NCBI GenBank assembly: GCA_032718475.1
Contig: JAUCBJ010007236.1
Location: forward strand, 39,737 to 103,736
Length of the DNA: 64,000 nucleotides
Direction: 5' to 3'
From: Nemertoderma westbladi
Taxonomy: Eukaryota > Animalia > Xenacoelomorpha
Part shown: positions 1 through 64,000 of the stretch, one piece after another
Numbering within the stretch: position 1 is the first letter of the stretch
How the letters are laid out: every line of letters starts with the position of its first letter
Notes under the pieces: generated by a model
Database searches by the model: none
Told to the model about the DNA's origin: nothing
The model's input: the letters and a program-made list of their open reading frames with translations, nothing else
Program-made: the position numbers and the translations under genes

Positions 1-3000
1 TCCTGGTTCCCTACCTCGGTATTTATTCTCCACCCTGGTTCCCTACCTCGGTATTTATTCTCCACTCCTGGTTCCCTACCTCGGTATTTATTATCCACCC
101 TGGTTCCCTACCTCGGTATTTATTCTCCACCCTGGTTCCCTGCCTCGGTATTTATTCTCCACCCTGGTTCCCTACCTCGGTATTTATTCTCCACTCCTGG
201 TTCCCTACCTCGGTATTTATTCTCCACTCTGGTTCCCTACCTCGGTATTTATTCTCCACTCCTGGTTCCCTACCTCGGTATTTATTCTCCACCCTGGTTC
301 CCTACCTCGGTATTTATTCTCCACCCTGGTTCCCTACCTCGGTATTTATTCTCCACTCCTGGTTCCCTACCTCGGTATTTATTCTCCACTCCTGGTTCCC
401 TACCTCGGTATTTATTCTCCACTCCTGGTTCCCTACCTCGGTATTTATTCTCCACTCCTGGTTCCCTACCTCGGTATTTATTCTCCTACGTGGTTCCCTA
501 CCTCGGTATTTATTCTCCACCCTGGTTCCCTACCTCGGTATTTATTCTCCACTCCTGGTTCCCTACCTCGGTATTTATTCTCCTACGTGGTTCCCTACCT
601 CGGTATTTATTCTCCACCCTGGTTCCCTACCTCGGTATTTATTCTCCACCCTGGTTCCCTACCTCGGTATTTATTCTCCACTCCTGGTTCCCTACCTCGG
701 TATTTATTCTCCACCCTGGTTCCCTACCTCGGTATTTATTCTCCACCCTGGTTCCCTACCTCGGTATTTATTCTCCACTCCTGGTTCCCTACCTCGGTAT
801 TTATTCTCCACTCTGGTTCCCTACCTCGGTATTTATTCTCCTACGTGGTTCCCTACCTCGGTATTTATTCTCCACCCTGGTTCCCTACCTCGGTATTTAT
901 TCTCCACCCTGGTTCCCTACCTCGGTATTTATTCTCCACTCCTGGTTCCCTACCTCGGTATTTATTCTCCACTCCTGGTTCCCTACCTCGGTATTTATTC
1001 TCCACTCTGGTTCCCTACCTCGGTATTTATTCTCCACTCTGGTTCCCTACCTCGGTATTTATTCTCCTACGTGGTTCCCTACCTCGGTATTTATTCTCCA
1101 CCCTGGTTCCCTACCTCGGTATTTATTCTCCACTCTGGTTCCCTACCTCGGTATTTATTCTCCACTCCTGGTTCCCTACCTCGGTATTTATTCTCCACTC
1201 TGGTTCCCTACCTCGGTATTTATTCTCCACTCCTGGTTCCCTACCTCGGTATTTATTCTCCACCCTGGTTCCCTACCTCGGTATTTATTCTCCACTCCTG
1301 GTTCCCTACCTCGGTATTTATTCTCCACTCCTGGTTCCCTACCTCGGTATTTATTCTCCACTCTGGTTCCCTACCTCGGTATTTATTCTCCTACCGTGGT
1401 TCCCTACCTCGGTATTTATTCTCCACTCTGGTTCCCTACCTCGGTATTTATTCTCCACTCCTGGTTCCCTACCTCGGTATTTATTCTCCACCCTGGTTCC
1501 CTACCTCGGTATTTATTCTCCACTCCTGGTTCCCTACCTCGGTATTTATTCTCCACTCCTGGTTCCCTACCTCGGTATTTATTCTCCACTCCTGGTTCCC
1601 TACCTCGGTATTTATTCTCCACTCCTGGTTCCCTACCTCGGTATTTATTCTCCACCCTGGTTCCCTACCTCGGTATTTATTCTCCACTCCTGGTTCCCTA
1701 CCTCGGTATTTATTCTCCACTCTGGTTCCCTACCTCGGTATTTATTCTCCACTCTGGTTCCCTACCTCGGTATTTATTCTCCACTCCTGGTTCCTCCTAC
1801 CTCGGTATTTATTCTCCACCCTGGTTCCCTACCTCGGTATTTATTCTCCACCCTGGTTCCCTACCTCGGTATTTATTCTCCTACCTGGTTCCCTACCTCG
1901 GTATTTATTCTCCACCCTGGTTCCCTACCTCGGTATTTATTCTCCACTCTGGTTCCCTACCTCGGTATTTATTCTCCACTCCTGGTTCCCTACCTCGGTA
2001 TTTATTCTCCACCCTGGTTCCCTACCTCGGTATTTATTCTCCACCCTGGTTCCCTACCTCGGTATTTATTCTCCACTCTGGTTCCCTACCTCGGTATTTA
2101 TTCTCCTACCTGGTTCCCTACCTCGGTATTTATTCTCCACTCTGGTTCCCTACCTCGGTATTTATTCTCCACTCCTGGTTCCCTACCTCGGTATTTATTC
2201 TCCACCCTGGTTCCCTACCTCGGTATTTATTCTCCACCCTGGTTCCCTACCTCGGTATTTATTCTCCACTCCTGGTTCCCTACCTCGGTATTTATTCTCC
2301 ACCCTGGTTCCCTACCTCGGTATTTATTCTCCACCCTGGTTCCCTACCTCGGTATTTATTCTCCACTCCTGGTTCCCTACCTCGGTATTTATTCTCCACT
2401 CTGGTTCCCTACCTCGGTATTTATTCTCCACTCCTGGTTCCCTACCTCGGTATTTATTCTCCACCCTGGTTCCCTACCTCGGTATTTATTCTCCACTCCT
2501 GGTTCCCTACCTCGGTATTTATTCTCCACCCTGGTTCCCTACCTCGGTATTTATTCTCCACCCTGGTTCCCTACCTCGGTATTTATTCTCCACCCTGGTT
2601 CCCTACCTCGGTATTTATTCTCCACTCCTGGTTCCCTACCTCGGTATTTATTCTCCACCCTGGTTCCCTACCTCGGTATTTATTCTCCACTCCTGGTTCC
2701 CTACCTCGGTATTTATTCTCCACCCTGGTTCCCTACCTCGGTATTTATTCTCCACCCTGGTTCCCTACCTCGGTATTTATTCTCCACCCTGGTTCCCTAC
2801 CTCGGTATTTATTCTCCACCCTGGTTCCCTACCTCGGTATTTATTCTCCACTCTGGTTCCCTACCTCGGTATTTATTCTCCACTCCTGGTTCCCTACCTC
2901 GGTATTTATTCTCCACCCTGGTTCCCTACCTCGGTATTTATTCTCCACTCCTGGTTCCCTACCTCGGTATTTATTCTCCACTCCTGGTTCCCTACCTCGG

Positions 3001-44494: not shown

Positions 44495-44698
44495 CTTTTT
44501 GTGGTGGCAATGTGTCGTCGTAACGCTGCCGTTTCTCTTTATGCCATCGAGACACATCTTATCGTTGGTCAGCTCCTTGGCTCGGGTATAAGCGAAGAAC
44601 TGGCGCCCGCCGCCGTTGTGACAAGTTTTTAAGGTCGGGAATTTCGAATCAGTTTTTCCTCCTCCATCGAAGCACAGTTGTGATTGGTCAACTTTTAA
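44465..44698 (-). CDS. GALNT: GALNT exon, 234 nt, phase 0/0: lectin alpha and beta subdomains
   Basis: Acceptor ttttgtag|TTA at 44698. Translation: [78 protein letters not shown]. Donor GAG|gtaggg at 44464. Not in the supplied ORF track. Confidence 0.9.
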
Positions 44699-47600
44699 CT
44701 ACAAAATTGTCACGAATTAAATTTTTAATGAAAATTACTATAATGTCAAAACCCTAAAATTTAAAACTTAAAACGCAATATCGCATAGGTAGATAGATAG
44801 ATTTATTTATATATTATGCAAACAATAGAAACCAATACATTAACTCAGTAAAATTATTAATGTATAGTAAGTATTGTCCAACATAACATAAAGGATAACC
44901 CCTAAAGCTTTGCAGCTTATTTCCAAGGGGGTCCTTCAAGTTACTTGGTTACCAATACAAACTAAACTAACTACTGTATATAGAATAATTATATAATTTA
45001 AACTAAATAAGATACAAGAAATACAAAATTGATCATTATTACTAATTATTGCACATGCACCTATTTAATATTGAACTAAACTAAATACTGCTATTGACTA
45101 CTAGTTTTCAATATACGGTTACAGTACGAAACGTTTTTAATTTTTGAACATATATAAAACAACATTTTTAGGTTTTAGTCCACCAAAACCTAAAAAAACG
45201 AATTTTCATATTACACAAAAATTTAGATATTAAACTTTTAGATAAGCTACTGCTGAGCTCCGAGTAGGGCTGTGCTTATTAAACTTACAGCTCCAGCGTA
45301 ATCGAGATAAACATTAATCGGGGCCTCAGGCCAAATATTATCTAAATACCAGCGGAATGGTTTGCAATGTAGTCTATCTCGAATCAAATGTCTTTCTGTA
45401 AGATCACCAACTTCCATCAAATATGCGGCTAAAAAGTGAAATCATTAGTATAAGTTTTAAAACTACTTTTTATTTGTTTTATTACATAGTAAATTAGTAA
45501 TTTCCATATCACTCTTTCAATTAATCTAGGCTATGTAACTTACATGGGTTATAAAGGTACCAAATATATTTGTATTCATCAAGCCAAACTTCAACAGAAC
45601 GTTTCGTGTTTTTTGTTACGATCCCAGTTCCACCGGGCCACGAATACGGGGTGGATTTCCGGAATATGTGGCCGACGTGACTGCAGGTTACTGTGAGTAA
45701 CCGTCCACCACACTGCCAGATCTGTAGGGAAACATAATATGTGAATGGGAAAGAGATGTGGTATGGGAAAGTAAGCAGCCAGATCTGTTGGGAGAGAGAT
45801 GTGGTATGGGAAAGTAAGCAGCCAGATCTGTTGGGAGAGCGATGTGGTATGGGAAAGTAAGCGGCCAGATCTGTTGGGAGAGAGATGTGGTATGGGAAAG
45901 TAAGCAGCCAGATCTGTTGGGAGAGAGATGTGGTATGGGAAAGTAAGCAGCCAGATCTGTTGGGAGAGAGATGTGGTATGGGAAAGTAAGCAGCCAGATC
46001 TGTTGGGAGAGCGATGTGGTATGGGAAAGTAAGCGGCCAGATCTGTTGGGAGAGTGATGTGGTATGGGAAAGTAAGTAGCCACATCTGTTGGGAGAGCGA
46101 TGTGGTATGGGAAAGTAAGCGGCCAGATCTGTTGGGAGAGTGATGTGGTATGGGAAAGTAAGTAGCCACATCTGTTGGGAGAGCGATGTGGTATGGGAAA
46201 GTAAGCGGCCAGATCTGTTGGGAGAGAGATGTGGTATGGGAAAGTAAGCAGCCAGATCTGTTGGGAGAGAGATGTGGTATGGGAAAGTAAGCAGCCAGAC
46301 TGTTGGGAGAGAGATGTGGTATGGGAAAGTAAGCAGCCAGACTGTTGGGAGAGAGATGTGGTATGGGAAAGTAAGCGGCCAGATCTGTTGGGAGAGAGAT
46401 GTGGTATGGGAAAGTAAGCGGCCAGATCTGTTGGGAGAGAGATGTGGTTTGGGAAAGTAAGCAGCCAGATCTGTTGGGAGAGATATGTGGTATGGGAAAG
46501 TAAGCAGCCAGATCTGTTGGGAGAGTGATGTGGTATGGGAAAGTAAGCAGCCAGATCTGTTGGGAGAGAGATGTGGTATGGGAAAGTAAGCAGCCAGATC
46601 TGTTGGGAGAGAGATGTGGAATGGAAAAGTAAGCGGCCAGATCTGCTGGGAGAGAGATGTGGTATGGGAGAGTAAGCCGCCAGATCTGTTGGGAGAGAGA
46701 TGTGGTATAGGAAAGTAAGCGGCCAGATCTGCTGGGAGAGAGATGTGGTATGGGAGAGTAAGCATCCAGATCTGTTGGGAGAGAGATGTGGTATGGGAAA
46801 GTAAGCGGCCAGATCTGCTGGGAGAGAGATGTGGTATGGGAGAGTAAGCCGCCAGATCTGTTGGGAGAGAGATGTGGTATAGGAAAGTAAGCAGCCAGAT
46901 CTGTTGGGAGAGAGATGTGGTATGGGAGAGTAAGCAGCCAGATCTGTTGGGAGAGAGATGTGGTATGGGAAAGTAAGCAGCCAGATCTGTTGGGAGAGAG
47001 ATGTGGTATGGGAGAGTAAGCAGCCAGATCTGTTGGGAGAGAGATGTGGTATGGGAAAGTAAGCAGCCAGATCTGTTGGGAGAGAGATGTGGTATGGGAG
47101 AGTAAGCAGCCAGATCTGTTGGGAGAGAGATGTGGTATGGGAAAGTAAGCAGCCAGATCTGTTGGGAGAGAGATGTGGTATGGGAAAGTAAGCAGCCAGA
47201 TCTGTTGGGAGAGAGATGTGGTATGGGAGAGTAAGCAGCCAGATCTGTTGGGAGAGATATGTGGTATAGGTAAGTAAGCAGCCAGATCTGTTGGGAGAGA
47301 GATGTGGTATGGGAAAGTAAGCAGCCAGATCTGCTGGGAGAGAGATGTGGTATGGGAGAGTAAGCAGCCAGATCTGTTGGGAGAGAGATGTGGTATGGGA
47401 AAGTAAGCAGCCAGATCTGTTGGGAGAGTGATGTGGTATGGGAAAGTGAGCGGTCAGATCTGTTGGGAGAGAGATGTGGTATGGGAAAGTGAGCGGTCAG
47501 ATCTGTTGGGAGAGAGATGTGGTATGGGAGAGTAAGCAGCCAGATCTGTTGGGAGAGAGATGTGGTATGGGAAAGTAAGCAGCCAGATCTGTTGGGAGAG

Positions 47601-50600
47601 AGATGTGGTATGGGAAAGTAAGCAGCCAGATCTGTTGGGAGAGAGATGTGGTATGGAAAAGTGAGCGGTCAGATCTGTTGGGAGAGAGATGTGGTATGGG
47701 AGAGTAAGCAGCCAGATCTGTTGGGAGAGAGATGTGGTATGGGAAAGTAAGCAGCCAGATCTGTTGGGAGAGAGATGTGGTATGGGAAAGTAAGCAGCCA
47801 GATCTGTTGGGAGAGAGATGTGGTATGGGAAAGTAAGCAGCCAGATCTGTTGGGAGAGAGATGTGGTATGGGAAAGTAAGCAGCCAGATCTGTTGGGAGA
47901 GAGATGTGGTATGGAAAAGTGAGCGGTCAGATCTGTTGGGAGAGAGATGTGGTATGGGAAAGTAAGCAGCCAGATCTGTTGGGAGAGAGATGTGGTATGG
48001 GAAAGTAAGCAGCCAGATCTGTTGGGAGAGAGATGTGGTATGGGAAAGTAAGCAGCCAGATCTGTTGGGAGAGAGATGTGGTATGGGAAAGTAAGCAGCC
48101 AGATCTGTTGGGAGAGAGATGTGGTATAGGAAAGTAAGCAGCCAGATCTGTTGGGAGAGAGATGTGGTATGGGAAAGTAAGCAGCCAGATCTGTTGGGAG
48201 AGCGATGTGGTATGGGAAAGTAAGCAGCCAGATCTGTTGGGAGAGAGATGTGGTATGGAAAAGTGAGCGGTCAGATCTGTTGGGAGAGAGATGTGGTATG
48301 GAAAAGTGAGCGGTCAGATCTGTTGGGAGAGAGATGTGGTATGGGAAAGTAAGCAGCCAGATCTGTTGGGAGAGAGATGTGGTATGGAAAAGTGAGCGGT
48401 CAGATCTGTTGGGAGAGAGATGTGGTATGGGAGAGTAAGCAGCCAGATCTGTTGGGAGAGAGATGTGGTATGGGAAAGTAAGCAGCCAGATCTGTTGGGA
48501 GAGAGATGTGGTATGGAAAAGTGAGCGGTCAGATCTGTTGCGAGAGAGATGTGGTATGGGAGAGTAAGCAGCCAGATCTGTTGGGAGAGAGATGTGGTAT
48601 GGGAAAGTAAGCGGCCAGATCTGCTGGGAGAGAGATGTGGTATGGGAGAGTAAGCAGCCAGATCTGTTGGGAGAGAGATGTGGTATGGGAAAGTAAGCAG
48701 CCAGATCTGTTGGGAGAGAGATGTGGTATGGAAAAGTGAGCGGTCAGATCTGTTGGGAGAGAGATGTGGTATGGAAAAGTGAGCGGTCAGATCTGTTGGG
48801 AGAGAGATGTGGTATGTGAGAGTAAGCAGCCAGATCTGTTGGGAGAGAGATGTGGTAGGGGAAAGTAAGCAGCCAGATCTGTTGGGAGAGATATGTGGTA
48901 TAGGAAAGTAAGCAGCCAGATCTGTTGGGAGAGAGATGTGGTAGGGGAAAGTAAGCAGCCAGATCTGTTGGGAGAGATATGTGGTATAGGAAAGTAAGCG
49001 GCCAGATCTGTTGGGAGAGAGATGTGGTAGGGGAAAGTAAGCAGCCAGATCTGTTGGGAGAGATATGTGGTATAGGAAAGTAAGCAGCCAGACTGTTGGG
49101 AGAGAGATGTGGTATAGGAAAGTAAGCAGCCAGATCTGTTGGGAGAGAGATGTGGTATGGGAAAGTAAGCAGCCAGATCTGTTGGGAGAGAGATGTGGTA
49201 TGGGAAAGTAAGCAGCCAGATCTGTTGGGAGAGAGATGTGGTATGGAAAAGTGAGCGGTCAGATCTGTTGGGAGAGAGATGTGGTATGGGAGAGTAAGCA
49301 GCCAGATCTGTTGGGAGAGAGATGTGGTATGGGAAAGTAAGCAGCCAGATCTGTTGGGAGAGAGATGTGGTATGGGAAAGTAAGCAGCCAGATCTGTTGG
49401 GAGAGAGATGTGGTATGGGAAAGTAAGCAGCCAGATCTGTTGGGAGAGAGATGTGGTATGGGAAAGTAAGCAGCCAGATCTGTTGGGAGAGAGATGTGGT
49501 ATGGAAAAGTGAGCGGTCAGATCTGTTGGGAGAGAGATGTGGTATGGGAAAGTAAGCAGCCAGATCTGTTGGGAGAGAGATGTGGTATGGGAAAGTAAGC
49601 AGCCAGATCTGTTGGGAGAGAGATGTGGTATGGGAAAGTAAGCAGCCAGATCTGTTGGGAGAGAGATGTGGTATGGGAAAGTAAGCAGCCAGATCTGTTG
49701 GGAGAGAGATGTGGTATAGGAAAGTAAGCAGCCAGATCTGTTGGGAGAGAGATGTGGTATGGGAAAGTAAGCAGCCAGATCTGTTGGGAGAGCGACGTGG
49801 TATGGGAAAGTAAGCAGCCAGATCTGTTGGGAGAGAGATGTGGTATGGAAAAGTGAGCGGTCAGATCTGTTGGGAGAGAGATGTGGTATGGAAAAGTGAG
49901 CGGTCAGATCTGTTGGGAGAGAGATGTGGTATGGGAAAGTAAGCAGCCAGATCTGTTGGGAGAGAGATGTGGTATGGAAAAGTGAGCGGTCAGATCTGTT
50001 GGGAGAGAGATGTGGTATGGGAGAGTAAGCAGCCAGATCTGTTGGGAGAGAGATGTGGTATGGGAAAGTAAGCAGCCAGATCTGTTGGGAGAGAGATGTG
50101 GTATGGAAAAGTGAGCGGTCAGATCTGTTGCGAGAGAGATGTGGTATGGGAGAGTAAGCAGCCAGATCTGTTGGGAGAGAGATGTGGTATGGGAAAGTAA
50201 GCGGCCAGATCTGCTGGGAGAGAGATGTGGTATGGGAGAGTAAGCAGCCAGATCTGTTGGGAGAGAGATGTGGTATGGGAAAGTAAGCAGCCAGATCTGT
50301 TGGGAGAGAGATGTGGTATGGAAAAGTGAGCGGTCAGATCTGTTGGGAGAGAGATGTGGTATGGAAAAGTGAGCGGTCAGATCTGTTGGGAGAGAGATGT
50401 GGTATGTGAGAGTAAGCAGCCAGATCTGTTGGGAGAGAGATGTGGTAGGGGAAAGTAAGCAGCCAGATCTGTTGGGAGAGATATGTGGTATAGGAAAGTA
50501 AGCAGCCAGATCTGTTGGGAGAGAGATGTGGTAGGGGAAAGTAAGCAGCCAGATCTGTTGGGAGAGATATGTGGTATAGGAAAGTAAGCGGCCAGATCTG

Positions 50601-53600
50601 TTGGGAGAGAGATGTGGTAGGGGAAAGTAAGCAGCCAGATCTGTTGGGAGAGATATGTGGTATAGGAAAGTAAGCAGCCAGACTGTTGGGAGAGAGATGT
50701 GGTATAGGAAAGTAAGCAGCCAGATCTGTTGGGAGAGAGATGTGGTAGGGGAAAGTAAGCAGCCAGATCTGTTGGGAGAGATATGTGGTATAGGAAAGTA
50801 AGCAGCCAGATCTGTTGGGAGAGAGATGTGGTAGGGGAAAGTAAGCAGCCAGATCTGTTGGGAGAGATATGTGGTATAGGAAAGTAAGCAGCCAGATCTG
50901 TTGGGAGAGATATGTGGTATAGGAAAGTAAGCAGCCAGATCTGTTGGGAGAGAGATGTGGTAGGGGAAAGTAAGCAGCCAGATCTGTTGGGAGAGATATG
51001 TGGTATAGGAAAGTAAGCGGCCAGATCTGTTGGGAGAGAGATGTGGTAGGGGAAAGTAAGCAGCCAGATCTGTTGGGAGAGATATGTGGTATAGGAAAGT
51101 AAGCAGCCAGACTGTTGGGAGAGAGATGTGGTATAGGAAAGTAAGCAGCCAGATCTGTTGGGAGAGAGATGTGGTATGGGAAAGTAAGCAGCCAGATCTG
51201 TTGGGAGAGAGATGTGGTATGGGAAAGTAAGCAGCCAGATCTGTTGGGAGAGAGATGTGGTATGGAAAAGTGAGCGGTCAGATCTGTTGGGAGAGAGATG
51301 TGGTATGGGAGAGTAAGCAGCCAGATCTGTTGGGAGAGAGATGTGGTATGGGAAAGTAAGCAGCCAGATCTGTTGGGAGAGAGATGTGGTATGGGAAAGT
51401 AAGCAGCCAGATCTGTTGGGAGAGAGATGTGGTATGGGAAAGTAAGCAGCCAGATCTGTTGGGAGAGAGATGTGGTATGGGAAAGTAAGCAGCCAGATCT
51501 GTTGGGAGAGAGATGTGGTATGGAAAAGTGAGCGGTCAGATCTGTTGGGAGAGAGATGTGGTATGGGAAAGTAAGCAGCCAGATCTGTTGGGAGAGAGAT
51601 GTGGTATGGGAAAGTAAGCAGCCAGATCTGTTGGGAGAGAGATGTGGTATGGGAAAGTAAGCAGCCAGATCTGTTGGGAGAGAGATGTGGTATGGGAAAG
51701 TAAGCAGCCAGATCTGTTGGGAGAGAGATGTGGTATAGGAAAGTAAGCAGCCAGATCTGTTGGGAGAGAGATGTGGTATGGGAAAGTAAGCAGCCAGATC
51801 TGTTGGGAGAGCGACGTGGTATGGGAAAGTAAGCAGCCAGATCTGTTGGGAGAGAGATGTGGTATGGAAAAGTGAGCGGTCAGATCTGTTGGGAGAGAGA
51901 TGTGGTATGGAAAAGTGAGCGGTCAGATCTGTTGGGAGAGAGATGTGGTATGGGAAAGTAAGCAGCCAGATCTGTTGGGAGAGAGATGTGGTATGGAAAA
52001 GTGAGCGGTCAGATCTGTTGGGAGAGAGATGTGGTATGGGAGAGTAAGCAGCCAGATCTGTTGGGAGAGAGATGTGGTATGGGAAAGTAAGCAGCCAGAT
52101 CTGTTGGGAGAGAGATGTGGTATGGAAAAGTGAGCGGTCAGATCTGTTGCGAGAGAGATGTGGTATGGGAGAGTAAGCAGCCAGATCTGTTGGGAGAGAG
52201 ATGTGGTATGGGAAAGTAAGCGGCCAGATCTGCTGGGAGAGAGATGTGGTATGGGAGAGTAAGCAGCCAGATCTGTTGGGAGAGAGATGTGGTATGGGAA
52301 AGTAAGCAGCCAGATCTGTTGGGAGAGAGATGTGGTATGGAAAAGTGAGCGGTCAGATCTGTTGGGAGAGAGATGTGGTATGGAAAAGTGAGCGGTCAGA
52401 TCTGTTGGGAGAGAGATGTGGTATGTGAGAGTAAGCAGCCAGATCTGTTGGGAGAGAGATGTGGTAGGGGAAAGTAAGCAGCCAGATCTGTTGGGAGAGA
52501 TATGTGGTATAGGAAAGTAAGCAGCCAGATCTGTTGGGAGAGAGATGTGGTAGGGGAAAGTAAGCAGCCAGATCTGTTGGGAGAGATATGTGGTATAGGA
52601 AAGTAAGCGGCCAGATCTGTTGGGAGAGAGATGTGGTAGGGGAAAGTAAGCAGCCAGATCTGTTGGGAGAGATATGTGGTATAGGAAAGTAAGCAGCCAG
52701 ACTGTTGGGAGAGAGATGTGGTATAGGAAAGTAAGCAGCCAGATCTGTTGGGAGAGAGATGTGGTAGGGGAAAGTAAGCAGCCAGATCTGTTGGGAGAGA
52801 TATGTGGTATAGGAAAGTAAGCAGCCAGATCTGTTGGGAGAGAGATGTGGTAGGGGAAAGTAAGCAGCCAGATCTGTTGGGAGAGATATGTGGTATAGGA
52901 AAGTAAGCAGCCAGATCTGTTGGGAGAGATATGTGGTATAGGAAAGTAAGCAGCCAGATCTGTTGGGAGAGAGATGTGGTATGGGAAAGTAAGTAGCCAC
53001 ATCTGTTGGGAGAGAGATGTGGTATGGAAAAGTGAGCGGTCAGATCTGTTGGGAAAGAGATGTGCTATAGGAAAGTAAGCAGCCAGACTGTTGGGAGAGA
53101 GATGTGGTATGGGAAAGTAAGCAGCCAGGTCTGTTGGGAGAGATATGTGGTATGGGAAAGTAAGCAGCCAGACCTTTGTGAGAGAGATGTGGTATGGGAA
53201 AGTAAGCAGCCAGATCTGTTGGGAGAGAGATGTGGTATGGGAAAGTAAGCAGCCAGACCTTTGTGAGAGAGATGTGGTATGGGAAAGTAAGCGGCCAGAT
53301 CTGCTGGGAGAGAGATGTGGTATGGGAGAGTAAGCCGCCAGATCTGTTTTAGGTTTAATTATATGGTACAGGTCAGCAAACAGCCACATCTGTATCAATA
53401 GTAAGTTATTTTAGGTGACCTACAACAGAGACAGATATGTAGTGATATAAGATTACTTAGGTGTCATTGGCTTTATATAACCCGCCCAGTGAGTCCGCAC
53501 CAATAAAATAATACGTTTTTTTTCGATTCACTCACTCTAAGACTTATTTCAACATTTTCTCCACCCCATATTTTCATTTCCTTATCGTATGTGCCGATTT

Positions 53601-56600
53601 CCTCAAAGTATCTCTTTTCGATAGCAAAAAGTCCACCAGCCATAGTTGGAGTTCTGTAATTAAAAATAATTCTGAAGGAGTGAAAACAGACAATATAGGA
53701 CGTCTTTGAAATATAAGATAACATGTTTAGGGGCAATCATATAGGTATATGATAAGTTGAACAATCGTCATACAGTACATTGTTTGGTGCATATTGTTAT
53801 TATTGTTTTTACATGATGTATAATAAATGTATCTAATACACTGTTCTATTAATTATTGTAAGACACAAGCCGTGAGCCTTTACCAATAACCAGAGCATGC
53901 AAGATAATAGTAAATCAAAATCGACTTCCCAACCACCCAAAGATGTTCGCAGATTAACATGCAATATATGAGCTTGTGCGAATCACAAATCGATAAACGG
54001 ATTCATAAATATCATTCCTCAGGAAAAATATGACAAGTTTTGACCCCGAAAATGCAGAGACTTGTAGAAGAACACTCCTACCTAAAGGCGTAGCTGCGGT
54101 CATTAAACATGCTGCTTCGTTCTGATAAAGGCAACTGAATCCACGTAAAGATAACATTAACGCCGAATCCCCCGGCCGACGGTTCCCTAGTCCCGGGACG
54201 GTATGCCAGATTGGTCTCACGAATTACATTTATGTCAGGGGTGGTCACTGTTTTTCTGGAATAACAAATGTAATTTCCAATTTTAAGTATTTCCCAGGGA
54301 CTAAGGAATATAATTTTGAAAAATTTCGCGTCGATTCTAATTTTTTTGATGATTACGTTGATTGATTTCCATTTACTTTCATTTTCATCGCACATACTCA
54401 GAAATAAAATGTTGGCGATATATGAAAGAATGCCCGATACCCCGGAAATAAGCAATACAGTCTCCAAGGCAACCGTTTGACAAGGCAGAACATACCGGAA
54501 GGAATAAGTATCATCAGCTTTTATTTTGCCTTCTTCTAATTGGCTGTGCTCAAACCAATTAAACAGCATCTTTCGGTCGAAGCCTCCCGCCCACACATAG
54601 ATCGGCGATCTGGATCTCGGTGGCGGCATTTTGAAATTGTTAAAGTCAATAACTGAAATCACCGGAACAACCGAAGTTTTACTGAACGGGAAAATAATAA
54701 AATTTCCAAACGGTTGATTAATATTGAGACGTTAACACTACCGGTATTATTATGTCCAGCTTAAATTATAATTATTTACATTTTATTTTGACGAGAAAAT
54801 AATTTATACAGGATGTTTTAGAGAGAAGTTTAAAGACACATTTGTAACAATTTTAAACATCAGATTACGGCATTAATATTTGCCTGCAAGCACAGAATTA
54901 AATATATGGAAAACCGGTTATCTTTAATTTATAATAAACAGCTCTTCGTCAGAAATAAATGTTTACACTTTCAAAAATTTATATGATAACGGAACTCATG
55001 GATTAGTAACCTGATTATTAAACGGCCTTAAAAAAAGATATTCAGCAATTGATTTAACTACGATTGAGCCTCCCGGCTTGTTACAAGTGTGAGAGTGACA
55101 CACTTGCACCATTCTTATTCATAATTGTGGTCGATTGTATTCTACTCATGCCCTTAGGCCATCTTAATAAAGATGGGGTGATGGTAACTCCTCCTACTGT
55201 ACTGGCTGCAGAAGTCGAGGAAACCCAGCCTAGTACTGTACCTAACTGATCTAGACTTTGCTGATGACTTAGGAGTACTCTCAGAATCACTAGAGGGAGC
55301 CCAAAGGCCCCTCTGCTCATTGGAGCAGGTTGCTTCTGTGTTGGTCTTTTTGTAAACTCAAGAAGACCAAAATTTTGACAGAGAACCTCGACAGCCCTCA
55401 CGAAATGTCTGATCGTAAGGGAACAAGCTCCAGGAATAATGGCTTGCTTGAACAAGTGGATGACTTTTGCTACTTAGGATAATGAATCCGGAAATCATGA
55501 GAAGAATGACATTCGGATACGTAAGGGGAAGGCGATGGGCGTGGGCGTGGGCGTGGGCGTGGGCGTGGGCGTGGGCGTGGGCGTGGGCGTGGGCGTGGGC
55601 AGCGTTAAATAGTCTGTCCAGGAATTGGAAATCCCATAGAATAAAACGGAACCTCAATGATCGATTGTTTAGGGCAGCAGTAATACCAGTACTGTATTAT
55701 TCTCTAATTACTATATTCATATTCATATTCCTATATTGTATTAACATTCCGGCTTTGTATACCACAGGCAGTCTGGCAAATCTGTTTGCCAGACAGCCAC
55801 CCTAGCGATAGCTACAGTATGTCGTGCTTCTTACCATCGGCCATCACCGCAACTAGCGTTCTCTCCCCAAGTTCCTCTTCTAGAGTGGCTCCTGGCGACA
55901 TGCTGAACCGCTGTTGTACCAGTAGACATAGGCACTATTACTGTAGCTTATAGTTTTTACTTCATGTACCAAATTAAAACCCGATAACTAGATAAGTTAA
56001 GGAACCATGTGATGGATAGAGTACATACATTAACCCTTTGCATACCAAACATAAGTTACATAATTTTTCACTTCCAAGGAACAAGAAAAATATATTTGAT
56101 CGGACCAAGGTTTATTTTCCTGTCGTACCAGAGATTTTTAAATAAAGAGTATAATCATATTATTACTTATCCTACCCTAAAAGGCGGCACACTGCCGCCT
56201 TTAACCATTTTCGCAATTTTTAAGCCACACACTGCCGCCTTAATTTTTTCTAACAAAATGATTTCATAAATTATGTAATTAAAAATACCCTCAAACCAAT
56301 AGGAATGCCTTCAGCAATATTCTTTTCTAGACTAGTTTTTCCTGCCCAACACGAATATGAACTCCATTTTCCGCCCCAAAAGATATAAGAAAGTTTTAAG
56401 ACGTTTTAAATAAAGGCGGCACCCTGCCGCCCTGGGGGTCAGGATAATATATGTAAAGGCGGCACTCTGCCGACCTGGGGTAAAAAAGTTATAATTATAT
56501 AAAGGCGACACACTGCCGCCATTATGAACATGGTCCTGAATTATTTCGAATGAAAAAGGCGGCAGTGTGCCGCCTTTTTTTTAGTCTTTGTGTTGGTACG

Positions 56601-57582
56601 CAAAGGGTTAACATAGGCCTACTGTGTGTATCTGTATCCACTGTATCGTTTATTGTTCTGTACACTGAACGTATAATAGGTGAGTAGGTATTCCAGAGAT
56701 TTTGAAATAGAGGTTTAAATTTTCAACTACAATTTGATACATTTTTGACAACCTTGAGAATATATTAAACTGAATCACGTAACTGCTATTGTACGAAATC
56801 CTATTGTCAATATGCTATACCATAAACGCGTGTGGGGAAAAAAAGCAGAATTGTCGACGAATGCAGTTGAAGAAGATACATAGAATATGAATTCTAACGT
56901 GGGGAAATCCTTACACGCAAAGGGGAAATAACATAAAATAGTCCAACACCAAATGTAGCAGAATAACGGAAGGCCAGATCAATAATTAGCTCATTATGTG
57001 TACCTAATCGGGTGACTATAATCCCTTCTAGACAAGGCGGCCTCCTCTGGCCCGGAGAAGTACCAATTGAAGATTACATTGATATCAAAACCGCCGACCT
57101 GGTATTGGCCATTCTCAGGGTAATGACTGTAGTGCAAGGTTTCTTCGTGTAACACGTCAATCATTGGTACCACAGCCGTTCGTCTGCGAAAATACTCGTC
57201 AAACAATTAATAATGGGGCAGAGAAAGGTTTTAAACGTTCCTTCTATGGCTATTGCTAATTTTCTTCCATACATAACATAATAATTAATTGAGTAATAAT
57301 GAGACAGAAAACGTTTTTCAACTAATTTACATTGAAAAGTAATTATAAATAAATATAATTTATTCTTAACTAACCGGTCCCAGGCTATTTCTGCCAGAAG
57401 TGGTTCCAGCCAGCCTCTGGTGCACTCGCAATGGGAATCTAAGAAGATTAGTACGGGACCGACGGCCCTGTCTGCGCCTGCTAATCGAGCCTGGATTAAA
57501 CCCGACCGGTTGATTAAACGTACTAAGTGGATTACCGTGCCCAGGTTGGCGATATACTCTTCAAGCTGTTTACCAAGATGAT
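44465..57582 (-). CDS. GALNT: Polypeptide N-acetylgalactosaminyltransferase (GT27, GALNT1/GALNT13-like), partial multi-exon gene; 5' and 3' exons lie outside the window
   Basis: The spliced exons give GT1 motifs ([20 protein letters not shown] with the DxH motif, GWLEPLL), the Gal/GalNAc-T motif ([36 protein letters not shown]), the linker ([14 protein letters not shown]) and ricin-B lectin repeats (CFD...[13 protein letters not shown]...[10 protein letters not shown]). All splice sites are GT-AG and phases agree across all junctions. The paralog assignment is by eye only. Confidence 0.95.
44788..44940 (-). mobile_element. Possible 3'-end remnant of a LINE (CR1/L2-like): stem-loop followed by an AATAAA/(TCTA)n tail
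   Basis: The minus strand reads AGGACCCCCTTGGAAATAAGCTGCAAAGCTTTAGGGGTTATCCTT (imperfect hairpin), then about 90 nt later ATAAATAAATCTATCTATCTA. This is a resemblance to LINE 3' ends only, with no coding remnant seen. Confidence 0.3.
45289..45428 (-). CDS. GALNT: GALNT exon, 140 nt, phase 1/0: end of catalytic domain and linker
   Basis: Acceptor cactttttag|CC. Translation: (S)[46 protein letters not shown]. Donor GCT|gtaagt. Confidence 0.93.
45544..45721 (-). CDS. GALNT: GALNT exon, 178 nt, phase 0/1: WQCGG, GHIFR and flexible-loop region
   Basis: Acceptor tttccctacag|ATC. Translation: [59 protein letters not shown]. Donor CCAT|gtaagt. Confidence 0.95.
45747..53348. repeat. Satellite array 2, 43-bp unit (+ strand GGGAGAGAGATGTGGTATGGGAAAGTAAGCAGCCAGATCTGTT), roughly 177 copies, intronic
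   Basis: Period is 43 (AGATCT at 45781 and 45824). The array fills nearly all of the intron 45722-53535. Confidence 0.99.
53536..53653 (-). CDS. GALNT: GALNT exon, 118 nt, phase 2/0: Gal/GalNAc-T motif
   Basis: Acceptor tttttaattacag|A. Translation: [39 protein letters not shown]. Donor AGA|gtgagt. Confidence 0.96.
54082..54255 (-). CDS. GALNT: GALNT alternative exon variant 3, 174 nt, phase 2/2
   Basis: Acceptor tttgttattccag|A. Translation: [57 protein letters not shown](R). Donor AG|gtagga. Confidence 0.85.
54496..54681 (-). CDS. GALNT: GALNT alternative exon variant 2, 186 nt, phase 2/2
   Basis: Acceptor ttttcccgttcag|T. Translation: [61 protein letters not shown](R). Donor CG|gtatgt. 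Confidence 0.85.
55081..55700 (+). mobile_element. Decayed non-LTR retrotransposon reverse transcriptase fragment (RTE-like)
   Basis: Frameshifted RT motifs appear in the expected order: [16 protein letters not shown] (about 55097), DLDFADDL (55248), [16 protein letters not shown] (55447), [16 protein letters not shown] and [12 protein letters not shown] (about 55662). It may extend to about 55890. Confidence 0.85.
55536..55600 (+). repeat. (TGGGCG)n microsatellite, about 11 copies
   Basis: Directly visible, inside the RT remnant. Confidence 0.97.
56034..56607. mobile_element. Non-autonomous piggyBac-like DNA transposon (MITE), 574 bp
   Basis: Flanked by TTAA at 56030-56033 and 56608-56611. 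The terminal inverted repeats CCCTTTGCATACCAA and TTGGTACGCAAAGGG match at 14 of 15 positions. It has internal palindromic repeats AAAGGCGGCA-nnn-TGCCGCC and no transposase ORF. Confidence 0.85.
57004..57183 (-). CDS. GALNT: GALNT alternative exon variant 1, 180 nt, phase 2/2
   Basis: Acceptor tattttcgcag|A. Translation: [59 protein letters not shown](R). Donor AG|gtacac. Confidence 0.88.
57375..57582 (-). CDS. GALNT: GALNT exon, 208 nt, phase 1/2: GT1 motif with DxH
   Basis: Acceptor cttattatag|AT. Translation: (D)[68 protein letters not shown](R). Donor CG|gttagt. Confidence 0.96.
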
Positions 57583-57609
57583 CTATAATAAGATTATACA
57601 ACATGAATA

Positions 57610-60600
57610 GTACTGGTATCGCCTACCAGTACTATATCCACTCACCCAGTGTGCTGGCATCGCCTACCAGTACTATATCCACTCACCCTGTGTGCTGGTA
57701 TCGTCTACCAGTACTATATCCGCTCACCCAGTGTGCTGGCATCGTCTACCAGTACTATCTCCACTCACCCTGTGTGCTGGCATCGTCTACCAGTACTATA
57801 TCCACTCACCCTGTGTGCTGGTATCGTCTACCAGTACTATATCCGCTCACCCAGTGTGCTGGCATCGTCTACCAGTACTGTCTCCACTCACCCAGTGTGC
57901 TGACATCGCCTACCAGTACTATCTCCACTCACCCAGTGTGCTGGCATCGTCTACCAGTACTATCTCCACTCACCCAGTGTGCTGACATCGTCTACCAGTA
58001 CTATATCCACTCACCCAGTGTGCTGGCATCGCCTACCAGTACTATATCCACTCACCCTATGTGCTGCATCGCCTACCAGCACTATCTCCACTCACCCAGT
58101 GTGCTGGCATCGCCTACCAGTACTATATCCACTCACCCAGTGTGCTGGCATCGCCTACCAGTACTATATCCACTCACCCAGTGTACTGGCATCGCCTACC
58201 AGCACTATATCCACTCACCCAGTGTGCTGGTATCGTCTACCAGTACCATCTCCACTCACCCAGTGTGCTGGCATCGCCTACCAGTACTATATCCGCTCAC
58301 CCAGTGTGCTGGCATCGTCTACCAGTACTGTCTCCACTCACCCAGTGTGCTGACATCGCCTACCAGTACTATATCCACTCACCCAGTGTGCTGGCATCGC
58401 CTACCAGTACTATATCCACTCACCCTGTGTGCTGCATCGCCTACCAGTACTATATCCACTCACCCAGTGTGCTGGCATCGCCTACCAGTACTATATCCAC
58501 TCACCCAGTGTACTGGCATCGCCTACCAGTACTATATCCACTCACCCAGTGAGGCTGACATCGCCTACCAGTACTATATCCACTCACCCCGTGTGCTGGC
58601 ATCCTCTACCAGTACTATATCCACTCATCCAGTGTGATGGCATCGCCTACCAGTACTATATCCACTCACCCAGTGTGCTGGCATCGTCTACCAGTACTAT
58701 ATCCACTCACCCTGTGTGCCGCATCGTCTACCAGTACTATCTCCACTCACCCTGTGTGCTGGCATCGTCTACCAGTACTATCTCCACTCACCCTGTGTGC
58801 TGACATCGTCTACCAGTACTATCTCCACTCACCCTGTGTGCTGGCATCGTCTACCAGTACTATATCCACTCACCCAATGTGCTGGCATCGTCTACCAGTA
58901 CTATATCCACTCACCCAGTGTGCTGGCATCGTCTACCAGTACTATATCCACTCCCCCAGTGTGTTGACATCGTCTACCAGTACTATATCCACTCACCCAG
59001 TGTGCTGGCAACGTCTACCAGTACTATATCCACTCACCCAGTGTGCTGGCATCGTCTACCAGTACTATATCCACTCCCCCAGTGTGCTGACATCGTCTAC
59101 CAGTACTATATCCACTCACCCAGTGTGCTGGCAACGTCTACCAGTACTATATCCACTCACCCAGTGTGCTGGCATCGTCTACCAGTACTATATCCACTCA
59201 CCCAGTGTGCTGACATCGTCTACCAGTACTATATCCACTCACCCAGTGTGCTGGCATCGCCTACCAGCACTATCTCCACTCACCCTGTGTGCCGCATCGT
59301 CTACAAGTACTATATCCGCTCACCCAGTGTGCTGGCATCGTCTACCAGTACTGTCTCCACTCACCCAGTGTGCTGGCATCGTCTACCAGTACTATATCCA
59401 CTCACCCAGTGTGCTGACAACGTTTACCAGTACTATCTCCACTCACCCAGTGTGCTGGCATCGTCTACCAGTACTATATCCACTCACCCAGTGTGCTGGC
59501 ATCGTCTACCAGTACTATCTCCACTCACCCTGTGTGCTGGCATCGTCTACCAGTACTATATCCACTCACCCTGTGTGCTGGCATCGCCTACCAGTACTAT
59601 ATCCACCCACCCTGTGTGTTAGCATCGTCTACCAGTACTATCTCCCCTCACCCTGTGTGCTGGCATCGTCTACCAGTACTATCTCCAGTCACCCAGTGTG
59701 CTGACATCGCCTACCAGTACTATATCCACTCACCCTGTGTGCTGGCATCGTCTACCAGTACTATCTCCACTCACCCAGTGTGCTGGCATCGTCTACCAGT
59801 ACTATCTCCACTCACCCTGTGTGCCGCATCGTCTACCAGTACTATATCCACTCACCCTGTGTGCCGCATCGTCTACCAGTACTATATCCACTCACCCAGT
59901 GAGCTGACATCGTCTACCAGTTCTATCTCCACTCACCCTGTGTGCTGGGATCGTCTACCAGTACTATATCCACTCACCAGTGTGATGGCATCGTCTACCA
60001 GTATTATCTCCACTCACCCTGTGTGCTGGCATCGTCTACCAGTACTATCTCCACTCACCCTGTGTGCTGGCATCATCTACCAGTACTATATCCACTCACC
60101 CTATGTGCTGGCATCGTCTACCAGTACTATATCCACTCACCCTGTGTGCTGGCATCGTCTACCAGTACTATCTCCACTCACCCTGTGTGCTGGCATCGTC
60201 TACCAGTACTATCTCCATTCACCCTGTGTGCTGGCATCGTCTACCAGTACTATCTCCTTCACACTGTGTGCTGGCATCGTCTACCAGTACTATCTCCACT
60301 CACCCAGTGTGCTGGCATCGTCTACCAGTACTATCTCCACTCACCCTGTGTGCTGGCATCATCTACCAGTACTATATCCACTCACCCTGTGTGCCGCATC
60401 GTCTACCAGTACTATCTCCACTCACCCTGTGTGCTGGCATCGTCTACCAGTACTATCTCCACTCACCCAGTGTGCTGGCATCGTCTACCAGTACTATCTC
60501 CACTCACCCTGTGTGCTGGCATCATCTACCAGTACTATATCCACTCACCCTGTGTGCCGCATCGTCTACCAGTACTATATCCACTCACCCAGTGTGCTGG

Positions 60601-63600
60601 CATCGTCTACCAGTACTATCTCCACTCACCCTGTGTGCTGGCATCATCTACCAGTACTATATCCACTCACCCTGTGTGCCGCATCGTCTACCAGTACTAT
60701 ATCCACTCACCCTGTGTGCTGGGATCGTCTACCAGTACTATATCCACTCACCAGTGTGATGGCATCGTCTACCAGTATTATATCCACTCACCCTGTGTGC
60801 TGGCATCGTCTACCAGTACTATCTCCACTCACCCTGTGTGCTGGCATCATCTACCAGTACTATATCCACTCACCCTATGTGCTGGCATCGTCTACCAGTA
60901 CTATATCCACTCCCCCAGTGTGCTGACATCGTCTACCAGTACTATATCCACTCACCCTGTGTGCTGGCATCGTCTACCAGTACTATCTCCACTCACCCTG
61001 TATGCTGGCAACGTCTACCAGTACTATATCCACTCACCAGTGTGCTGGCATCGTCTACCAGTACTATATCCACTCACCCAGTGTGCTGACATCGTCTACC
61101 AGTACTATATCCACCCACCCTGTGTGCTGGCAACGTCTACCAGTACTATCTCCACTCACCCTGTGTGCCGCATCGTCTACCAGTACTATATCCACTCACC
61201 CAGTGTGCTGGCATCGTCTACCAGTACTATATCCACTCACCCAGTGTGCTGACATCGTCTACCAGTACTATCTCCACTCACCCTGTGTGCTGGCAACGTC
61301 TACCAGTACTATATCCACTCACCCAGTGTGCTGGCATCGTCTACCAGTACTATATCCACTCCTCACCCAGTGTGCTGACATCGTCTACCAGTACTATATC
61401 CACCCACCCTGTGTGCTGGCATCGTCTACCAGTACTATCTCCACTCACCCTGTGTGCCGCATCGTCTACCAGTACTATATCCACTCACCCAGTGTGCTGA
61501 CATCGTCTACCAGTACTATATCCACCCACCCTGTGTGCTGGCATCGTCTACCAGTACTATCTCCACTCACCCTGTGTGCCGCATCGTCTACCAGTACTAT
61601 ATCCACTCACCCAGTGTGCTGACATCGTCTACCAGTACTATCTCCACTCACCCTGTGTGCTGGCATCGTCTACCAGTACTATCTCCACTCACCCTATGTG
61701 CTGGCATCGTCTACCAGTACTATATCCACTCCCCCAGTGTGCTGACATCGTCTACCAGTACTATATCCACTCACCCTGTGTGCTGGCATCGTCTACCAGT
61801 ACTATCTCCACTCACCCTGTATGCTGGCAACGTCTACCAGTACTATATCCACTCACCAGTGTGATGGCATCGTCTACCAGTACTATATCCACTCACCCAG
61901 TGTGCTGACATCGTCTACCAGTACTATATCCACCCACCCTGTGTGCTGGCAACGTCTACCAGTACTATCTCCACTCACCCTGTGTGCCGCATCGTCTACC
62001 AGTACTATATCCACTCACCCAGTGTGCTGGCATCGTCTACCAGTACTATATCCACTCACCCAGTGTGCTGACATCGTCTACCAGTACTATCTCCACTCAC
62101 CCTGTGTGCTGGCAACGTCTACCAGTACTATATCCACTCACCCAGTGTGCTGGCATCGTCTACCAGTACTATATCCACTCCTCACCCAGTGTGCTGACAT
62201 CGTCTACCAGTACTATATCCACCCACCCTGTGTGCTGGCAACGTCTACCAGTACTATCTCCACTCACCCTGTGTGCCGCATCGTCTACCAGTACTATATC
62301 CACTCACCCAGTGTGCTGACATCGTCTACCAGTACTATATCCACCCACCCTGTGTGCTGGCAACGTCTACCAGTACTATCTCCACTCACCCTGTGTGCCG
62401 CATCGTCTACCAGTACTATATCCACTCACCCAGTGTGCTGACATCGTCTACCAGTACTATATCCACCCACCCTGTGTGCTGGCAACGTCTACCAGTACTA
62501 TCTCCACTCACCCTGTGTGCCGCATCGTCTACCAGTACTATATCCACTCACCAAGTGTGCTGGCATCGTCTACCAGTACTATATCCACTCACCCAGTGTG
62601 CTGGCAACGTCTACCAGTACTATATCCACCCACCCAGTGTGCTGGCATCGCCTACCAGTACTATCTCCACTCACCCTGTGTGCTGGCATCGTCTACCAGT
62701 ACTATATCCACTCACCCTGTGTGCTGGCATCGCCTACCGGTACTATATCCACTCACCCTGTGTGTTAGCATCGTCTACCAGTACTATCTCCCCTCACCCT
62801 GTGTGCTGGCATCGTCTACCAGTACTATCTCCACTCACCCAGTGTGCTGACATCGCCTACCAGTACTATATCCACTCACCCAGTGTGCTGGCATCGTCTA
62901 CCAGTACTATCTCCACTTACCCAGTGTGCTGGCATCGTCTACCAGTACTATCTCCACTCACCCTGTGTGCCGCATCGTCTACCAGTACTATATCCACTCA
63001 CCCTGTGTGCCGCATCGTCTACCAGTACTATCTCCACTCACCCTGTGTGCTGGCATCGTCTACCAGTACATTATCCACTCACCCAGTGAGCTGACATCGT
63101 CTACCAGTACTATCTCCACTCACCCTGTGTGCTGGGATCGTCTACCAGTACTATATCCACTCACCAGTGTGATGGCATCGTCTACCAGTATTATCTCCAC
63201 TCACCCTGTGTGCTGGCATCGTCTACCAGTACTATCTCCACTCACCCTGTGTGCCGCATCGTCTACCAGTACTATATCCACTCACCCTGTGTGCCGCATC
63301 GTCTACCAGTACTATATCCACTCACCCAGTGAGCTGACATCGTCTACCAGTTCTATCTCCACTCACCCTGTGTGCTGGGATCGTCTACCAGTACTATATC
63401 CACTCACCAGTGTGATGGCATCGTCTACCAGTATTATCTCCACTCACCCTGTGTGCTGGCATCGTCTACCAGTACTATCTCCACTGACCCTGTGTGCTGG
63501 CATCATCTACCAGTACTATATCCACTCACCCTATGTGCTGGCATCGTCTACCAGTACTATATCCACTCACCCTGTGTGCTGGCATCGTCTACCAGTACCA

Positions 63601-64000
63601 TCTCCACTCACCCTGTGTGCTGGCATCGTCTACCAGTACTATCTCCACTCACCCTGTGTGCTGGCATCGTCTACCAGTACTATCTCCACTCACCCTGTGT
63701 GCTGGCATCGTCTACCAGTACTATATCCACTCACCCTGTGTGCCGCATCGTCTACCAGTACTATCTCCACTCACCCTGTGTGCTGGCATCGTCTACCAGT
63801 ACTATCTCCACTCACCCTGTGTGCTGGCATCGTCTACCAGTACAATCTCCACTCCACTCACCCTGTGTGCCGCATCGTCTACCAGTACTATCTCCACTCA
63901 CCCTGTGTGCTGGCATCGTCTACCAGTACTATCTCCACTCACCCTGTGTGCTGGCATCGTCTACCAGTACAATCTCCACTCCACTCACCCTGTGTGCTGG
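57610..64000. repeat. Satellite array 3, 41-bp unit (+ strand CC[A/T]GTGTGCTGGCATCGTCTACCAGTACTAT[A/C]TCCACTCAC), roughly 156 copies in the window, continues past the right edge
   Basis: Period is 41 (CTCACC at 57641 and 57682), with 40-bp variants (GTGCCGCATC, CTCACCAGTG). Confidence 0.99.

Follow-up and report, generated by a model that had tools for sequence, protein, structure and literature searches.

Tandem copies of exon–intron boundaries that lie within introns have been described in amphioxus, where they were named 'mirages' in the Adh3 gene (PMC3087553, PMC3902484). According to the accessible parts of these two articles, mirages are also found in the globin genes BflGb6 and BflGb9, in troponin C and in PGBD5; they involve both donors and acceptors and leave splicing undisturbed, and the mechanism of their origin is treated there as unexplained. 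Junction minisatellites are also on record for the human genes F7, 6-16, CBS (intron 13), LMNB2 and PDGF (intron 4), with 5–26 copies in the portions of the source available (PMC1557585). For the 37-bp VNTR in intron 7 of F7, the mutagenesis experiments included in those portions indicated that the pseudo-donors are functional and that the most upstream donor wins (PMC1557585). The first-pass annotation of the DNA analysed here considered the amplification of splice junctions into satellites to be possibly undescribed, a suggestion that has to be withdrawn, as the phenomenon is already published to the extent that these sources are available (PMC3087553, PMC3902484, PMC1557585).

The window, i.e., the whole 64,000-nt stretch of DNA that was analysed, was found to contain three long tandem arrays, called by Tandem Repeats Finder (TRF), and a series of exons on its minus strand. 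Pfam matches to GT2, Glyco_transf_7C and Ricin_B_lectin were obtained in three of the seven stretches scanned. Exons b-c-d-e-f-g make up one stop-free spliced frame of ~350 residues, which unites the GT2 domain, the Gal/GalNAc-T motif and the ricin-B lectin domain and is 43–50% identical (local BLAST) to the best 15 of 120 fetched animal proteins, including GALNT1/13-like entries of an acoel, an urchin, a nemertean, a starfish and a bird. No close relative was found in the homologue searches, the best identities being 67% over exon b and 59% over exon e, with none for exon g, and no amphioxus name occurs among the 120 proteins listed. By these similarities, the minus-strand exons of the window belong to a gene for a polypeptide GalNAc-transferase. 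The introns free of arrays measure 115–590 bp, with one of 2,322 bp. The d–e intron spans 7,814 bp, of which 7,603 bp are array, leaving 211 bp without it, and the proposal that the arrays inflate introns is borne out in this case. The features are listed in Table 1.

Table 1. Arrays, exons and hairpin of the GalNAc-transferase locus (positions within the window)
Feature	Position	Strand	Description
Array 1	2–44494 by TRF; feature 1–44494	minus	Period 32, at least 1,369 copies, 93% matches; continues beyond window edge
Array 1 unit			32/33 bp: last ~30 nt of exon g plus start of donor
Array 2	45746–53348	minus	43-bp unit, 177 copies (TRF); C-rich tract, almost no GT
Array 2 unit			~34 nt of intron end, AG, and 9 nt of exon-e-like sequence
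Array 3	57613–64000	minus	41-bp unit, at least 156 copies (TRF); continues beyond window edge
Array 3 unit			GTGAGT preceded by the final ~35 nt of the upstream exon (EIVLVDDAST)
Exon g	44465–44698	minus	Ricin-B lectin, Pfam PF00652, E-value 2e-13; spliced joints
Exon f	45289–45428	minus	X3 and X4 are joined over gaps of 590 and 115 nt with CT..AC ends
Exon e	45544–45721	minus	Starts IWQCGG; array 2 derives from its acceptor
Exon d	53536–53653	minus	Pfam PF02709; RNA contigs have the end of exon d as their loose end at 45721
Exon c3	54082–54255	minus	Alternative, 174 nt; used in RNA contigs X3 and X4
Exon c2	54496–54681	minus	Alternative, 186 nt, intact; no cover in RNA contigs
Exon c1	57004–57183	minus	Alternative, 180 nt, intact; skipped in RNA contigs
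Exon b	57375–57582	minus	GT2 domain, DSH metal-binding motif; Pfam PF00535, E-value 8e-13
Hairpin	57607–57635	minus	Perfect 12 bp; closes array 3, ~25 nt before exon b acceptor

Of eight public sequencing runs, five contain the region and four were used. Two DNA runs from two studies (X1 and X2) cover introns and exons evenly at a depth of 13–23. The contigs of the other two (X3 and X4) are labelled 'DNA?', and were taken as RNA assemblies, again from two studies, since their sequence is confined to exons, which are joined over GT–AG introns. X1 differs from the window in 8 letters out of 700 and thus represents another haplotype.

Other elements were seen outside the arrays. A 312-bp element of very high copy number (depth up to ~450,000 in X1) lies in the f–g intron (44783–45094), and is bridged by contigs of both X1 and X2, which gives it the look of a polymorphic insertion. 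At 56030–56611, there is a non-autonomous element with terminal inverted repeats and TTAA flanks, which is presumably piggyBac-like. Short plus-strand frames with a DFADD motif (55188–55482) are probably a LINE reverse-transcriptase remnant, and a (GGCGTG)n microsatellite of 11.5 copies is located at 55531–55600.

The units of 32/33, 43 and 41 bp all fall within the minisatellite range (10–160 bp in the published cases compared), and the three arrays are separated by ~5.5 kb of unique DNA. Array 1 extends over more than 44 kb within the window. Its unit had been given as 33 bp; a unit of this length, the exon-like one, does exist but is second commonest (392 of 1,334 parsed units), while the commonest one is 32 bp long (829 of 1,334), and 107 distinct unit types were recognized in total. 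The G–C content of the arrays is 49–52%, compared to 47% in exons and 35% in unique intron sequence; purines make up 75% of the sense strand in array 1 and 63% in array 3. Each array contains a block that is duplicated without any difference, 1,366 bp long in array 1, 2,103 bp in array 2 and 376 bp in array 3; such blocks fit unequal exchange and could include assembly error. At the far edge of array 2 (53349–53410), decayed, AT-rich older copies of the unit are spaced at ~46 bp.

For comparison of the arrays with the splice sites of the gene, mid-array units were each aligned to 17 junction windows, with 300 shuffles for significance. The array 1 unit matched the end of exon g, and the array 2 unit matched the exon e acceptor; the matches also held for exon sequence alone (array 1) and for non-array sequence alone (array 2), and in both cases none of the 300 shuffles reached the score. 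Neither unit had a comparable match to any other junction window (17 windows each). The array 3 unit gave no junction match inside the window, its source exon being located outside. That exon was supplied by a spliced X3 contig, in which exon b is joined to a 36-nt piece followed by unique sequence. The piece is identical to an array 3 copy except for two differences. Translated by hand, the contig reads INRSPHHLLS in frame with EIVLVDDAST, a pattern present in 63 of 122 fetched proteins. As the motif encoded by the source exon is a conserved one, the copying went from exon to array. The first-pass annotation had described array 3 as EIVLVDDAST plus a donor on the strength of the peptide, and the spliced contig now provides the exon itself.

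The copying is not exact in all of the arrays. The real exon g has ATT at a site where the common array 1 units have ATA, and 1,365 of 1,368 copies differ from the exon at this point, on which the earlier statement that array 1 copies the exon end needs correction. The true end of exon g serves as the first copy of array 1, with the donor following after position 44465. Array 2, said to reproduce the real acceptor, does match its own junction but is a diverged copy, with 31 of 39 aligned columns identical. In addition, the edge copies differ from the homogenised interior, by one base in the first copy of array 1 and through decay at the edges of array 2. Taken together, the alignments (arrays 1 and 2) and the spliced contig (array 3) support the idea, put forward in the first reading of the sequence, that each of the three arrays derives from an exon–intron boundary of its own gene. 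A motif common to the arrays was also sought and rejected: of six comparisons, the best (p = 0.013) was a 9-mer shared between single variants of array 1 and array 3, the others giving p = 0.16–0.94, and a similar word lies near the array-free donor of exon d.

Such arrays confront the spliceosome with many near-identical decoys, and the RNA contigs indicate which copy is used. The X3 contig (1,828 nt, depth 181) carries exons b, e, f and g with no differences and one unit at each of the three junctions. X4 has one unit at the array 1 and array 2 junctions, and its contig ends short of the array 3 junction. Both leave exon g at 44465, i.e., from the first copy, into non-array sequence, and both join exon d to the real acceptor at 45721. 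Thus, the copy used is the one attached to the exon, an answer that, for donors, had been obtained experimentally in F7, as far as the available part of that study goes (PMC1557585). X4 and X1 come from the same sample, so that arrays and clean splicing coexist. Contigs drop rare variants, and rare use of other copies is therefore possible. Two short X4 contigs consist of array 1 units (depth 5.9 and 7.5 vs. 83.6), and could reflect intron, DNA carry-over or use of a downstream donor.

The reading favoured here, with a probability of roughly 0.75, is that the arrays are minisatellites of the mirage type: their units come from the gene's own boundaries, the exon-attached copy alone appears in RNA, and they would have originated as tandem duplications tolerated in introns and grown afterwards. 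The features found here agree with those of mirages, namely a boundary-spanning unit of minisatellite size, conserved GT or AG, splicing at the authentic site, and a homogenised interior with divergent edges. The likely starting point of each array was a short tandem duplication of the ordinary sort across a junction; it would have been retained as its additional copies are intronic, and later growth was probably due to slippage and unequal exchange. The array itself is likely a tolerated by-product. The tolerance of intronic copies, one of three explanations offered at the outset, fits the RNA evidence. At the donors, 1,232 array 1 copies are the same as the real site at positions −3 to +6; as these decoys are identical in sequence, position must presumably decide, and the exon-proximal donor would win by it, as in F7. 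Each array repeats only one side of a splice signal, so internal copies are likely unable to define exons, and use of a downstream donor would lead to an in-frame stop and probably to degradation of the slipped transcript. At the acceptor, a T-rich tract and proximity to the exon probably favour the real site over array 2; the array 2 copies have on average four T in positions −20 to −3, compared with 8–10 in real acceptors (7 of 7 checked). Several points temper this reading. All three long arrays sit on junctions, for which the chance is 0.026 even under a short-intron null, and tolerance alone may be insufficient; the data of the F7 precedent are mammalian; and arrays 1 and 3 are cut off by the window edges before they end.

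Why the arrays are found at junctions is the point on which the strongest rival bears, i.e., that mutation coupled to splicing or transcription gives rise to tandem repeats at the splice junctions of this lineage, or makes them expand. The unique DNA of the window (5,515 bases) contains 16 splice sites, and the chance that three random seeds would all span one is 0.001 when all unique DNA is considered, 0.002 for the same junctions when seeds lying wholly inside exons are excluded, and 0.026 after removal of transposon-rich stretches to mimic short ancestral introns. These values speak for a coupled process, as do the donor units of arrays 1 and 3, which hold only ~3–7 intronic bases. However, the window was chosen after the fact for its pattern, so that the chance figures establish no bias, and most of the 16 splice sites are without an array. 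The R-loop version of this idea, raised in the first-pass annotation, finds no support in the sense-strand G–C skew, which is inconsistent (+0.47, −0.62 and +0.37 in arrays 1, 2 and 3) and of opposite sign in donor and acceptor arrays. The hairpin that ends array 3 resembles a template-switch scar: it folds better than shuffles (z = −4.7), covers two AG and is unchanged in the X1 and X2 contigs, and it may be either such a scar or an RNA hairpin. Yet, the ~6 kb scanned contain two further stems of 12 bp. Hairpins as seeds of the arrays were rejected, as the array 1 and 2 junctions fold no better than shuffles. On balance, a coupled process is considered distinctly unlikely.

Short introns together with tolerance of intronic copies explain most of the junction placement. 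Within the favoured reading, junction seeds are likely common as this gene has short introns and GC-rich, strand-asymmetric sequence is found at exon edges. The latter is close to another of the initial explanations, that GC-richer exon edges seed repeats, which is plausible given 49–52% in the arrays vs. 35% in unique intron sequence, but the most GC-rich exon end, that of exon b (57%), bears no array. The bolder proposal that junctions are true hot spots for repeat birth and runaway growth, with mirage arrays attaining satellite size and acting as a main driver of intron gigantism in the lineage, is regarded as rather unlikely; if true, the gene would offer a natural experiment on how a splice site is chosen when over 1,200 donors of identical sequence are spread across 44 kb.

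A second rival holds that the arrays are functional splicing devices, with decoys that tune expression or lengthen isoforms, or with a giant intron that slows down transcription. It can draw on the retention of splice signals: GT is kept in 1,345 of 1,369 array 1 copies (real site included) and in 144 of 155 array 3 copies, 122 of which have GTGAGT, and AG is kept in all 175 matched array 2 copies (real site included), an array with 14 GT in 7,603 bp. However, the two GT positions of array 1 vary in 13 and 13 of 1,368 copies, much as their neighbours do (0–22 for most), and homogenisation thus explains the retention; no purging of donor GT was seen in array 1. The donor positions of array 3 differ in 7–15 of 155 copies, which are not independent of each other. 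In the window, array 1 has GC at its first extra donor, where the X1 and X2 contigs have GT, and the change was not taken as selected. Functional use might also be read from the array-derived contigs of X4 and from the nearest array 2 acceptor, which would add an in-frame, stop-free insert of 21 residues (45722–45784) just before IWQCGG; 14 of 174 array 2 acceptors are in frame and open. Decay would not hide use of this nearest acceptor, the insert being in frame and free of stops, and it is absent from RNA contigs X3 and X4. Read-through past the array 1 donor meets a stop in the first extra copy, and the commonest array 3 read-throughs do so after four codons. With only plain junctions in the RNA contigs of two studies, functional arrays appear very improbable.

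The DNA runs bear on whether the arrays exist as assembled. Summed depth, which is not a copy number, reaches 13,612 and 69,975 for array 1 and up to 1,648 and 3,803 for array 3 in X1 and X2, respectively; relative to flanking single-copy depth, arrays 1 and 3 stand at ~80 to 3,000x in the two runs, and the array 1 ratio, which bears on length polymorphism or somatic instability, differs about fourfold between them, again without being a copy number. Read depth rules out an invented repeat, so the concern that the arrays are assembly artefacts is settled apart from their exact lengths, and the assembled lengths are putative. That real units were inflated by mis-assembly, above all to 44 kb, as the identical kilobase-sized blocks within array 1 and within array 2 and the lack of an observed spanning read might suggest, is hardly credible against 107 distinct array 1 unit types, unit variants of the window that recur in the short-read contigs of both studies, and a summed depth hundreds to thousands of times that of single-copy DNA.

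Apart from the arrays, the gene contains three tandem homologous exons, c1, c2 and c3, which are 31–40% identical, share the same phases and each give a stop-free protein. The RNA contigs X3 and X4 use the third of them, with exon b joined to c3; absence of contig cover for c1 and c2 is not evidence of silence. Exon c1 aligns weakly (E-value, 0.02) to residues 248–290 of human GalNAc-T2, a stretch that lines the peptide-binding groove, and better to Drosophila PGANT9 (E-value, 3e-7). Inclusion of c1, c2 and c3 is likely mutually exclusive and would then alter the choice of substrate, and they may swap the peptide-binding groove. No such three-exon arrangement appeared among the papers listed by a literature search, and the trio is possibly of greater interest than the arrays themselves.

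In the open-access literature, the Adh3 original excluded, neither an array of this size nor a genome-wide test of enrichment at junctions was found. Should an excess at junctions across the genome hold up against a fair null, a mutational bias without present explanation would be indicated, which one window cannot show. Arrays of this kind can break short-read assemblies and mislead gene prediction. In a sample with both arrays and spliced mRNA, one donor is used out of 1,232 that are identical at −3 to +6, which indicates that position can suffice for the choice.

With regard to known systems, the giant introns of Drosophila Y-linked genes are filled with simple satellites and are still spliced. 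They are likewise inflated by repeats, but these are simple satellites that do not come from the gene's own junctions. Intron gain by tandem duplication, the Rogers model, similarly involves duplication around splice signals that alters intron size; in that model, as given in the accessible text, both splice sites come from one AG|GT unit (PMC3087553, PMC2812944). Here, the introns retain a non-repeat end of their own and their two splice sites do not stem from a single unit, so that the arrays fill introns without creating them. The model does not fit this locus, in which the array 3 intron ends in a unique T-rich acceptor and the array 2 intron begins with a unique donor.

The human F7 VNTR is similar to arrays 1 and 3 in that its first unit spans the donor, identical pseudo-donors follow and the upstream site is used, according to the part of the source available; its unit is mostly intronic (four exon and 33 intron bases), whereas those of arrays 1 and 3 are mostly exonic. 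In 6-16 and CBS, the same portion of the source reports use of the next two sites as well, and none was seen here in the RNA contigs. The closest likeness is to the amphioxus mirages, which, in the accessible text, are also boundary copies with signals kept and normal splicing, and with an interior homogenised while the edges are left out; the Adh3 units of 10–72 bp mentioned there imply several arrays per gene, as here. What stands out is scale. BflGb6 has 3–6 copies in the text available, compared with 156 to more than 1,369 at satellite scale (>44 kb) in the present gene, ~50x the largest copy number in the published cases compared (amphioxus Adh3 excluded), and a known oddity is thereby extended from tens of copies to more than 1,000.
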